Positions 44,486 to 54,219 of a DNA stretch of 64,000 bases are shown piece by piece; the first letter of the stretch is position 1; every line of letters starts with the position of its first letter. The notes under the pieces were generated by a model, which saw only the letters and a program-made list of their open reading frames with translations, ran no database searches and had not been told where the DNA came from. Made by a program: the position numbers and the translations under genes. The DNA comes from Escherichia coli (lineage in GTDB: Bacteria; Pseudomonadota; Gammaproteobacteria; Enterobacterales; Enterobacteriaceae). Where the stretch lies: assembly GCF_041248615.1 (NCBI RefSeq), contig NZ_CP158426.1; one strand, written 5' to 3'.

Positions 44486-45496
44486 ATGTCACTCAAGGCT
44501 ATCGCCGCCGAACTCGGGATCTCTGTCACCACAGTCAGCCGGGCGCTTGGCGGATTTTCGGACGTTTCCGCTTCGACCCGTGCACGTGTAGAAGCGGAAG
44601 CTCGGCGTCGTGGTTATCGCCCGAATACCCTGGCAAGACGTCTCAAAACCGGTAAAACCGATGCGGTCGGCCTGGTCTTCCCTGAACATGCTGTACTGTT
44701 CAGCAGTAGTGTGTTTGTGGATATGGTCAGTTGTATCAGCCGGGAACTGGCCCGCCATGATATTGACTTACTGCTGATAGCCGATGATGAACGGGCTGAC
44801 AGCCACAGCTATATGCGTCTGGTCGAAAGCCGCCGGGTTGATGCCCTTATCGTGGCGCACACGATGGATAATGACCCGCGTCTTACACACCTGCAGGAGG
44901 CCGGTATTCCGTTTCTGGCACTCGGTCAGGTGCCGTCCGGTCTTCCCTGTGCCTGGTTTGACTTTGATAACCATGCAGGAACCTGGCAGGCCACACAGCA
45001 CCTGATTGCCCTGGGCCATCAGCGAATTGCCCTGCTGAGTGAGGACAACTCCCGTGCCTATGTCACTGCACGACGTCAGGGATGGCGCGATGCCCTGAGT
45101 GAACATGGTCTGCCTGAGACCTGGCTACGCCGGGTCTCTCCCACCCGACGCTCAGGTTTCCAGGCAGTGACTGAGTTAATGTCACTTCCGCTTCCCCCGA
45201 CGGCCATTATTACCGACAGTGACCTGATCGGTGATGGCGCGGCCATGTCGCTGCAGTTATCCGGTCATCTGTCCGGAGAGGATGCCGTCTCTCTTGTGGT
45301 TTATGATGGTCTGCCGCAGGACAGTATTATTGAACAGGATGTGGCTGCAGTTCTTCAGTCAACACGACATCGCGTCGGTCGTCAGATTGCCGACATGATA
45401 CGCCAGCTGGTCACGAATGTTTCACCTGAAATGCTACAAGTACTCTGGCAGCCGGAATTTCATCCTGGCAAGACAACGCTTGCTCCCTCCGCCTGA
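44486..45496 (+). CDS. rafR: LacI-family repressor of the raffinose operon (RafR-like)
   Basis: 336 aa with N-terminal HTH MSLKAIAAELGISVTTVSRAL; directly upstream of alpha-galactosidase, permease and invertase genes. Confidence 0.75.
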   Translation: MSLKAIAAELGISVTTVSRALGGFSDVSASTRARVEAEARRRGYRPNTLARRLKTGKTDAVGLVFPEHAVLFSSSVFVDMVSCISRELARHDIDLLLIADDERADSHSYMRLVESRRVDALIVAHTMDNDPRLTHLQEAGIPFLALGQVPSGLPCAWFDFDNHAGTWQATQHLIALGHQRIALLSEDNSRAYVTARRQGWRDALSEHGLPETWLRRVSPTRRSGFQAVTELMSLPLPPTAIITDSDLIGDGAAMSLQLSGHLSGEDAVSLVVYDGLPQDSIIEQDVAAVLQSTRHRVGRQIADMIRQLVTNVSPEMLQVLWQPEFHPGKTTLAPSA

Positions 45497-45515
45497 TTTT
45501 TAATCCCGCTCACAA

Positions 45516-45554
45516 ATTCGAATCGTTTCGGTTGCTATCCGAAACGATTCGGAT
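45516..45554. promoter_or_regulatory. near-perfect 16-bp inverted repeat (candidate RafR operator pair) upstream of rafA
   Basis: ATTCGAATCGTTTCGG - 7 bp - CCGAAACGATTCGGAT, located 35-75 bp before the rafA start. Confidence 0.5.
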
Positions 45555-45589
45555 CAACAGTAAGGCATACCCGAAAACGGAGATGTCTT

Positions 45590-52592: not shown

Positions 52593-52691
52593 CCGTTTCC
52601 TGCCCGTAACCGTTGTGCACGTCATTTTTGTTGCGGGTGACTAAATCGATTTAGCTGTCAACAATACCTCTGTTTTTACAAGGATATAAAA

Positions 52692-54188
52692 ATGAAAAAA
52701 CACCTTCTCTCGTGTGCCATTCTGCTGGCCTGTTCCCCGGTCTTTGCGGCGGGGAATACCGACAGTATTGAAGCCCGGCTGGCGGCCCTGGAAAAACGGC
52801 TTCAGGATGCTGAAACCCGTGCTCAGAAGGCTGAATCACGGGCAACCGCTACAGAACAGCAGGTGCAGCAACTGGCCGCCACCCCGGCGACACAACCTGT
52901 TGTGCCACAGACCGTATCCGTACCACCGGAAAAGAAAGCGGACAATAGTGGTTTTGAGTTTCACGGCTATGCCCGCTCGGGTCTGCTGATGAACGATGCC
53001 GCATCCGGCAGCAAAAGTGGTCCGTATCTGACGCCTGCCGGAGAGACCGGTGGCTCGGTCGGGCGCCTCGGGAATGAGGGAGACACTTATGTGGAAACCG
53101 TGTTTGAGCACAAAAAGACGCTCGAAAGCGGGGCCACCACCCGGTTTAAGGTGATGCTGGCGGATGGTCAGAAAACCTATAACGACTGGTCGGCGAACTC
53201 CAGTGACCTTAACGTCCGCCAGGTGGTGGCTGAACTGGGAAATCTGCCGGACTTCACCGGGCCGCTGAAGCACAGTACGGTATGGGCGGGTAAACGTTTC
53301 GATCGTGACAACTTTGATATCCACTGGCTGGACTCGGACGTGGTTTTCCTCGGCGGAACCGGGGGCGGTATCTATGACGTGAAATGGAACGACACTCTGC
53401 GCAGTAACTTCTCCCTGTATGGACGCAATTTCGGGGAGATGGAGGATATCGATAACAACGTCCAGAACTATATCCTTACCATGAACCACTTTGCCGGGCC
53501 GTTCCAGCTTATGGTCAGCGGTATGCGGGCAAAGGATAATGATGACCGCAGGGACAATAATGGCGACCTTATCCATGCCAGTGCCGCCAGCCACGGTGTG
53601 CATGTGTTGGCCGGACTTCATAATGACAGTTTCTGGGGATTACGTGAGGGAACGGCGAAAATAGCACTTCTGTACGGGCATGGTCTGGGGGCGGAAGTGA
53701 AGGGGATTGGCTCTGACGGTGCACTACGCAGTGATGCGGATACTTGGCGTCTTGCTGCATATGGTACCACCCCGCTCGGAAACGGCTGGCATATCGCCCC
53801 GTCAGTCATGGCGCAGGGCAGTAAGGATCGCTATGCCCGTGGAGACAGTTATGAATGGGTGACCCTGAACACCCGCTTGATTAAGGAGGTGACGCAGAAT
53901 TTTGCGCTGGCGTTTGAGGGCACTTACCAGTACATGGATCTGAAACCTGAAGGGTATAAGGACCGCAATGCTGTTAACGGCAGTTTTTACAAGCTGACGT
54001 TTGCGCCCACCCTCAAGGCAGGAGGTCTGGGGGACTTCTTCAGCCGTCCGGAACTGCGTCTGTTCGCCACCTGGATGGACTGGAGCAGCAGACTGGATAA
54101 CTACGCCAGTGATGATGCTTTCGGCGGTAGCGGGTTTAATGCAGGCGGGGAATGGAATTTTGGCGTTCAGATGGAAACCTGGTTCTGA
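52692..54188 (+). CDS. sucrose/raffinose-specific glycoporin (ScrY/RafY family)
   Basis: 498 aa; signal peptide, N-terminal coiled-coil extension ([25 protein letters not shown]), LamB-like barrel, C-terminal …GVQMETWF. Confidence 0.85.
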
Positions 54189-54193
54189 ACACT

Positions 54194-54219
54194 AACGCTC
54201 CCGGTGTACCGGGAGCGTT
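54194..54219 (+). terminator. hairpin terminator after the porin gene
   Basis: AACGCTCCCGGT-GTAC-CGGGAGCGTT perfect stem directly after the stop codon. Confidence 0.6.

Follow-up and report, generated by a model that had tools for sequence, protein, structure and literature searches.

The window analysed here (the whole stretch of Escherichia coli DNA under study, 64,000 nucleotides of contig NZ_CP158426.1) carries a sugar-utilization module, which is comprised of a raf-type core (rafR, rafA, rafB and rafD), a gene for a paralogue of the glucose-type enzyme IIA (EIIA-Glc) of the phosphotransferase system (PTS), a DUF2913 pseudogene, and two scr-type genes encoding a fructokinase (scrK) and a sucrose-type glycoporin (scrY) (Table 1). 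This gene set was agreed upon by the list of open reading frames (ORFs), by protein family scans, and by the RefSeq annotation of an identical E. coli chromosome (strain THO-010), in which every gene of the module bears only a generic label. All the genes that an earlier note on this DNA had named were found where it had placed them, and its view of the module as a mixture of raf-type and scr-type genes is borne out by the gene identities. We consider that the whole is best explained as a horizontally acquired, mobile and self-contained module for the non-PTS catabolism of raffinose-family sugars, with a probability of roughly 0.7. Gene identities, mosaic ancestry, boundaries, operator architecture and the spread among genomes were established directly.

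Table 1. Features of the sugar module and of its borders; positions are those of the window (aa, amino acids; GH, glycoside hydrolase family; IS, insertion sequence; MFS, major facilitator superfamily).
Feature	Position	Strand	Evidence and remarks
Left border, IS2 copy	43063-44152	-	229-bp internal deletion fusing the orfA start to orfB; blastn against complete IS2 gives two pieces with a 229-bp gap
Whole sugar-gene block	44153-54389		about 10 kb, within an E. coli genomic island
rafR, LacI-family repressor	44486-45496	+	79% aa identity over 336/336 residues to plasmid RafR
RafR twin operators (predicted)	45516-45554		O1 45518-45531 (TCGAATCGTTTCGG), O2 45539-45552 (CCGAAACGATTCGG); start-to-start 21 bp
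rafA, GH36 alpha-galactosidase	45590-47716	+	Pfam Glyco_hydro_36N, Melibiase and Glyco_hydro_36C; 87% aa identity to plasmid RafA
rafB, LacY-family raffinose permease	47771-49048	+	TIGR00882 (oligosaccharide MFS), 679 bits; 88% aa identity to plasmid RafB
rafD, GH32 invertase	49045-50475	+	scrB_fam, 445 bits; 83% identity over 476/476 residues to plasmid RafD
Hairpin between rafD and the EIIA gene	50485-50505	+	terminator-like, weak T tract; -20 kcal/mol, z = -2.4
EIIA-Glc paralogue, 171 aa	50539-51054	+	NF006962, 235.7 bits against a cut-off of 212
DUF2913 pseudogene	51060-51636	+	frameshift near 51230-51260, giving ORFs 51060-51263 and 51325-51636
scrK, ScrK-type fructokinase	51666-52592	+	NF006957, 477 bits against a cut-off of 450; 65-69% aa identity to ScrK of canonical regulons
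Single ScrR-type palindrome upstream of scrY	52641-52654		CTAAATCGATTTAG; 1 match against 0.02 expected per window
scrY, sucrose-type glycoporin	52692-54188	+	PDB 1A0S, E = 8e-222, about 80% over the barrel; 76-80% to scr-regulon ScrY
Hairpin after scrY	54194-54219	+	homologous to the scrY-scrA intercistronic hairpin; -26 kcal/mol, z = -3.5
AT-rich tail	54220-54389		no scrA trace; 54189-54389 has 44% GC; 54220-54258 common to the Salmonella plasmid copy
Right border, IS1414 (IS256-family) remnant, then IS3-family fragment	54390-55217	-	N-terminus of the IS1414 transposase missing

Of 5426 complete E. coli genomes, 184 contain the module at 99% identity or more, mostly on the chromosome. It is also present on nine plasmid records, which include conjugative IncK2 plasmids from poultry and an IncFII plasmid of Salmonella Saintpaul. 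Over 10,106 bp, the Salmonella plasmid copy is colinear with the window; the two differ by 79 substitutions (0.8%) and by no indels, and the ratio of nonsynonymous to synonymous changes (pN/pS) between these two copies is below 1 in every intact gene. One record that seemed to hold a frameshift-free variant (L021) was rejected, being an error-rich assembly of the same module.

The core of the module resembles the pRSD2-type raf operon: the four core genes and their order are common to both, and the proteins are 79-88% identical (83-88% for rafA-rafB-rafD). The DNA match with the classical raf plasmid amounts to 79.6% identity and ends with rafD. By these values the raf genes of the module represent a separate lineage and not the classical plasmid operon, and the derivation of the raf part from known raf plasmids, as suggested by the earlier note, does not hold. 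The gene order also differs from that of the described operon, which runs rafR-rafA-rafB-rafD-rafY: the module possesses a porin of the unrelated ScrY type in place of RafY, no RafY-type (Porin_8) gene being found downstream of rafD, and it adds the EIIA-Glc paralogue, the DUF2913 pseudogene and the fructokinase. The proposal that the module is simply an already described pRSD2-type plasmid raf operon integrated into the chromosome, which could draw on the shared rafR-rafA-rafB-rafD order and operator layout, is refuted by the low DNA identity, by the end of the match at the end of rafD, and by the different genes that follow. Judged by regulator, operators and core enzymes, the module still belongs to the raf operon family, although it departs from the classical form in having no RafY; with scrA, scrB, scrR and part of the operators missing, it does not qualify as a scr regulon. 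Invertase RafD is only 40% identical to ScrB. For rafB, the ATG at 47771 is preceded by a Shine-Dalgarno sequence, while the ORF list reaches back to a GTG at 47756. All genes of the module align over their full length with intact homologues, with the sole exception of the DUF2913 pseudogene, so that a module of non-functional pseudogenes, considered in the earlier note as a possible objection, was not what we found.

A 16-nt inverted repeat upstream of rafA, formerly listed as a candidate operator pair, was confirmed: its arms (45516-45531 and 45539-45554) are 94% complementary and 7 nt apart, and a -35-like hexamer TTGCTA (45532-45537) lies between operators O1 and O2. The pRSD2-type operon likewise has twin RafR operators 21 bp apart around its -35 box, with the same sequence through to the ribosome-binding site; in pRSD2, the -35 box is reported to lie between the operators. 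The rafA control region is in fact conserved in four raf lineages, in which a TTGnTA hexamer is flanked by the boxes CCGAAACGTTTTGG and CCGAAACGTTTCGG; the invariant GATCAACAGTAAGGCAT and then the ribosome-binding site come after them. In a comparison of LacI-family regulons, RafR of the Enterobacteriales was found to have only double sites, located 21-22 bp apart (PMC4052901), and the sites at 45518 and 45539, at the rafA promoter, display precisely this arrangement. Based on the conserved twin-box layout and on this spacing rule, the inverted repeat corresponds to the known RafR twin operator, and we regard its two halves as predicted RafR operators. No further RafR boxes were found elsewhere in the module.

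The EIIA-Glc paralogue is approximately 60% identical to Crr, from which it differs by a one-residue insertion, and belongs to the PTS_EIIA_1 fold family with both active-site histidines conserved (His77 and His92, corresponding to His75 and His90 of Crr). The fold and both histidines are also shared with the IIA domain of the galactoside carrier LacS. Unlike Crr, the paralogue is encoded in a catabolic operon, after rafD, and not in the housekeeping ptsH-ptsI-crr arrangement; unlike the LacS domain, it is a separate protein and not part of a fusion. In a neighbour-joining tree of 108 sequences, it groups only with three others, originating from Citrobacter braakii (P0088), from Klebsiella michiganensis (P0099) and from a short metagenome contig (P0091), and apart from about 100 housekeeping Crr sequences. 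Among 5.8 billion protein clusters, its best matches beyond the module's own copies are only about 58-63% identical. Three proteins with 65-66% identity over part of the query (P0081, P0121 and P0127) were discarded, as they represent the housekeeping Crr of another taxon, with 81-85% identity to E. coli Crr, and a tblastn search of plasmids with the paralogue recovered, in plasmid-labelled records, only copies of the module and ptsHI-crr regions.

All four members of this EIIA clade start 63-65 bp after a gene for a 476-aa GH32 protein. The C. braakii locus has the order rafR-rafA-rafB-rafY-rafD-EIIA, and in K. michiganensis the rafD-EIIA pair lies beside rafR-rafA-rafB-rafY; both long loci share the RafR operators of the module, and both have, at the same position as in the window, the hairpin between rafD and the EIIA gene, as well as an equivalent Shine-Dalgarno sequence. 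The GH32-EIIA clusters differ from the module in several ways: their proteins are only 60-78% identical to those of the module, a RafY-type (Porin_8) porin is retained in both long loci, where the fructokinase, ScrY and DUF2913 are all missing, and their gene order is another one, with rafY located before rafD in Citrobacter and rafD-EIIA placed ahead of rafR in Klebsiella. No EIIA gene was found in the canonical scr regulons examined, nor was one adjacent to any of 80 GH32 loci from species-representative genomes, approximately 45 of which (from Enterobacterales and Pseudomonas) are of the csc type, having a cscB-like permease and/or a fructokinase or porin. The constant pairing of the crr-like gene with GH32, and the fact that the two long loci are raf clusters, speak against its being a scr feature; by its gene neighbourhood the EIIA gene belongs to the raf side of the module, where it would be a long-established partner of rafD.

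Concerning the role of this protein, RafB is reportedly a target of, and inhibited by, EIIA-Glc (Crr). The IIA-Glc-like domain of LacS, on the other side, regulates its own carrier through phosphorylation by HPr (PMC10703360). These two points make a coupling of RafB to the PTS the best-grounded idea for the paralogue, which by analogy most likely ties raffinose uptake via RafB to the phosphorylation state of the PTS. A more far-reaching proposal, which we put forward as speculative, is that the EIIA paralogues found after GH32 genes in raf-type clusters form a dedicated, operon-encoded regulatory family. Its members would be synthesized in parallel with RafB and receive phosphate from HPr, tuning or gating uptake by the state of the PTS; alternatively, they would maintain the stoichiometry of inducer exclusion under strong induction of the permease. 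In that case, the module would be a raffinose super-operon with a PTS coupling of its own, assembled in an unsequenced donor, and the paralogue would be the free-standing equivalent of the IIA domain that LacS carries as a fusion. No published description of a raf-linked EIIA paralogue or of a GH32-EIIA pair was found in the searchable literature.

Downstream of the EIIA gene, the earlier note had seen a GC-rich stretch of short ORFs. The ORFs are indeed present, but they are the two halves, in different reading frames, of one frameshifted DUF2913 gene, and no single intact ORF of about 200 aa exists. Family PF11140 matches only the conceptually fused halves (E = 5e-8), the C-terminal half alone giving no match, and the fused model can be aligned from one end to the other with intact proteins of approximately 200 aa, at 40-48% identity. 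The identical frameshift is present in the Salmonella plasmid copy, which has diverged by 0.8%. The nearest intact relative is located among the TraC, TraU, ParA and DnaB genes of a conjugative element, and the gene is absent from the other raf-EIIA clusters. A role of DUF2913 as a sugar-linked gene was rejected on these two grounds; it is a pseudogene of mobile-element origin and a dead passenger of the module.

Next come scrK and scrY, side by side and ordered as in the scrKYABR regulons of the pUR400, Klebsiella and Enterobacter type, with 65-69% and 76-80% protein identity, respectively. The porin, which had been described as ScrY/RafY-type, is an orthologue of ScrY in the LamB family and is not related to RafY (Porin_8), with which only the N-terminal coiled-coil region aligns, without similarity in the barrel. 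In contrast with canonical scrK genes, which bear an operator, scrK of the module starts 29 bp after the DUF2913 pseudogene, and its own ScrR box and promoter region are gone. Canonical scrY control regions contain two CTAAAYCGRTTTAG boxes that are spaced 59-60 bp apart and enclose a promoter-like interval; the module keeps only one of these boxes upstream of scrY and has none at scrK. The remaining box is an orphan, because no scrR is present. Searching the window by tblastn with the canonical proteins revealed neither scrA, nor scrB (the sole match being rafD, with 40% identity), nor scrR, for which the only matches were rafR and a LacI-family gene at 28047-28988 (both 28-29%), the latter presumably ebgR, judging from the coordinates of the reference strain. 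The absence of scrA, scrB and scrR, already noticed in the sequence, is thereby upheld.

In canonical regulons, scrA starts 60-67 bp after scrY, and a GC-rich hairpin lies between the two genes. The module has retained the homologous hairpin after scrY, but no scrA start follows within 200 bp. Similarity to scr regulons ends at approximately position 54220, about 30 bp after scrY and 170 bp before IS1414. Material from IS elements is indeed present behind the porin, as the earlier note had it, though not immediately: the IS1414-like match starts only at about 54390, 200 bp past the scrY stop codon. The idea that the present IS has cut the 3' end of the module is not consistent with these positions. 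The break lies upstream of both IS junctions and is the same in the Salmonella copy, which lacks IS1414, so that the present IS1414 did not remove scrABR. Neither does the module appear truncated in the sense of defective, since its genes encode a complete non-PTS route, and the lost control regions look like the result of a fusion into the raf operon.

We infer co-transcription, phenotype and the role of the EIIA protein as follows. Raffinose, melibiose or sucrose would cross the outer membrane through the ScrY-type porin and be imported across the inner membrane by RafB in symport with protons. RafA would then take off galactose, and RafD would cleave the remaining sucrose inside the cell without phosphorylation, which is a predicted difference from the scrKYABR route. 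The freed fructose would be converted to fructose-6-phosphate by the ScrK-type kinase, and glucose and galactose would be handled by the glucokinase and Leloir enzymes of the host. RafR is expected to repress the rafA promoter through the two operators flanking the -35 box, and scrK and scrY, derived from a scrKYABR-type regulon, would be read as the distal end of a long raf transcript that passes the partial terminator after rafD. The loss of the scrK control region, and the partial loss of that of scrY, point to such read-through from the raf promoter, and co-transcription of both genes as the distal end of one raf transcript is most likely. The module thus has the features of a fused, RafR-controlled, non-PTS raffinose operon whose pathway is apparently complete. 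In its logic, which combines a proton-coupled permease, a cytoplasmic GH32 invertase and a fructokinase, it is similar to cscRAKB, and RafD is 60-73% identical to csc-type invertases. It differs from cscRAKB in having RafR instead of CscR and RafB as the permease (sharing 34-46% identity with the permeases encoded by the recovered csc-type loci), and in possessing in addition an alpha-galactosidase, a porin and an EIIA gene.

This reading has to be weighed against the alternative of a working raf operon followed by dead cargo, in which everything from the EIIA gene through the DUF2913 pseudogene to scrK and scrY would be a silent residue of recombination and of a truncated scr regulon, making no contribution. 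The terminator-like hairpin directly after rafD, the decay of DUF2913 in the same stretch, the lack of an own promoter for scrK, the loss at scrY of one operator together with the interval between the two, and the missing scrA, scrB and scrR all agree with such leftovers. We nevertheless consider this unlikely. The three genes in question (EIIA, scrK and scrY) have their full length, the catalytic histidines are in place, and family scores exceed the curated cut-offs; between copies of the module that are 0.8% apart, the pN/pS of these genes is 0.13-0.45, compared with approximately 1 for the N-terminal half of the pseudogene, values that are based on just 2-15 differences per gene. In addition, the rafD-hairpin-EIIA succession has been kept across diverged lineages, which indicates that the hairpin is not the end of the functional unit, and in the classical operon rafY, too, lies beyond rafD and is reportedly expressed from the raf promoter. 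A further alternative regards the EIIA gene, scrK and scrY as the surviving half of a PTS sucrose route, with the EIIA protein donating its phosphoryl group to a ScrA whose gene lies in another part of the genome. EIIBC proteins of the ScrA type do not include a IIA domain and rely on EIIA-Glc, and scrK and scrY clearly originate from a scrKYABR-type regulon. This explanation is nonetheless highly improbable, as scrA is a neighbour of none of the four EIIA clade members, each of which comes after a GH32 gene, the two long loci are raf clusters, the canonical scr regulons examined have no EIIA gene, scrA is absent from the window, and Crr of E. coli already performs that task.

The interpretation of the module as a fused raffinose operon is itself weakened by several observations, in addition to the small number of differences behind the pN/pS values. 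Both the hairpin after rafD and the pseudogene between the EIIA gene and scrK could limit read-through, and a consensus scan found no promoter before the EIIA gene, scrK or scrY. The orphan ScrR-type box could be bound by some other regulator, the interaction surface of the EIIA paralogue has substitutions relative to Crr, and a donor genome with the ancestral arrangement was not found in the databases searched.

With the DUF2913 fragment, the EIIA protein and ScrY as queries, word-indexed searches of the 5.8 billion protein clusters revealed nothing intermediate: identities drop from 98-100% (copies of the module) to 78% for ScrY, and from 98% to 63% for the EIIA protein. A partial ScrY match of 86% (P0241/L016) was dismissed as a closer relative, since it belongs to an ordinary scrY-scrA locus with 75% DNA identity. 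Peptides of DUF2913 had no match in the species-representative genomes, and a RafD profile recovered GH32 loci from these genomes, none of them with RafA or EIIA, a result that serves as a negative control only. The donor organism is unsampled, though the module itself is common in E. coli. No published account of this gene order was found in the literature searched; the arrangement is undescribed, and its parts and their biochemistry are well known. The raf-linked EIIA paralogue, which accompanies rafD in several Enterobacteriaceae, may connect a non-PTS permease to the PTS, a connection that lends itself to testing. More generally, the module presents a clear case of operon building by fusion, in which a raf operon acquired the fructokinase and porin genes of a PTS sucrose regulon, and these genes lost the control regions they once had. 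Raffinose-family sugars are abundant in soy-based feed. The presence of the module on the chromosome of about 3% of the complete E. coli genomes and on conjugative poultry plasmids makes a niche-adaptation trait plausible.

IS elements are located on both sides of the module, as had been noted, but they do not constitute a composite transposon, which requires two copies of the same IS around its cargo: the left element is IS2 and the right one a remnant of IS1414. The left IS2 still scores 688 bits with the NCBIfam model for IS2 TnpB, its TnpA being reduced to approximately 43 codons, and is probably unable to move by itself. The left end common to the copies of the module, as compared in three contexts, is position 44153, which abuts the deleted IS2; on the IncK2 plasmid, a different, full-length IS3-family element ends at exactly the same nucleotide as IS2 of the window. 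The right end common to the E. coli and Salmonella plasmid copies is position 54258, beyond which the E. coli sequence runs on to approximately 54389, followed by the IS1414 remnant. In the Salmonella plasmid copy, a remnant of an IS200/IS605-type TnpB element with a large hairpin abuts at 54258. There (positions 16960-17277 of sequence L009, from Salmonella Saintpaul plasmid NZ_CP022492.1), the hairpin is perfect and precedes the N-terminus of TnpB (MRVFCEPMKRAYKYRFYPTPDQVELLAQTFGCVRFVYN...); the junction comes after the same ...TCATCAA as in E. coli and may reflect a site-specific insertion after TCAA. The GC content is even across all genes of the module (54-60%), which suggests assembly in the donor, or a long co-residence of the genes, and not a recent patching in E. 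coli.

The genomic island that contains the module adjoins nfeF (yqjH; 33889-34653), directly after which a tyrosine integrase gene is located (approximately 34950-36266, plus strand). ARAGORN found no tRNA or tmRNA genes in the window, so that the integration site of the island is not a tRNA gene. Within the IS1414 remnant, approximately 600 bp downstream of the module, lies an intact astA gene of 38 codons (54802-54918, minus strand), which encodes the EAST1 heat-stable enterotoxin (MPSTQYIRRPASSYASCIWCATACASCHGRTTRPSLAT); astA is also predicted by PLSDB at the equivalent place on the IncK2 plasmid. Just downstream of this remnant, a frameshifted IS3-family element has been invaded by a gene for a group II intron reverse transcriptase/maturase (ltrA; 56669-58192, plus strand), for which the annotation of the identical reference strain gives an internal stop. 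The same island carries a type I restriction-modification system (approximately 58999-64000, plus strand; coordinates mapped from the annotation of strain THO-010), comprised of hsdM, hsdS, a DUF4268 gene, and hsdR, which runs off the window. In another E. coli record, labelled as a plasmid (NZ_MG591698.1), the module is adjoined by a galactan-utilization cluster (positions 1-6046 of sequence L003) encoding an endo-beta-1,4-galactanase, a beta-galactosidase, a maltoporin, a LacI regulator and a stand-alone glucose-type EIIB of 105 aa, the latter being a second instance of a lone PTS component located beside non-PTS glycan genes.

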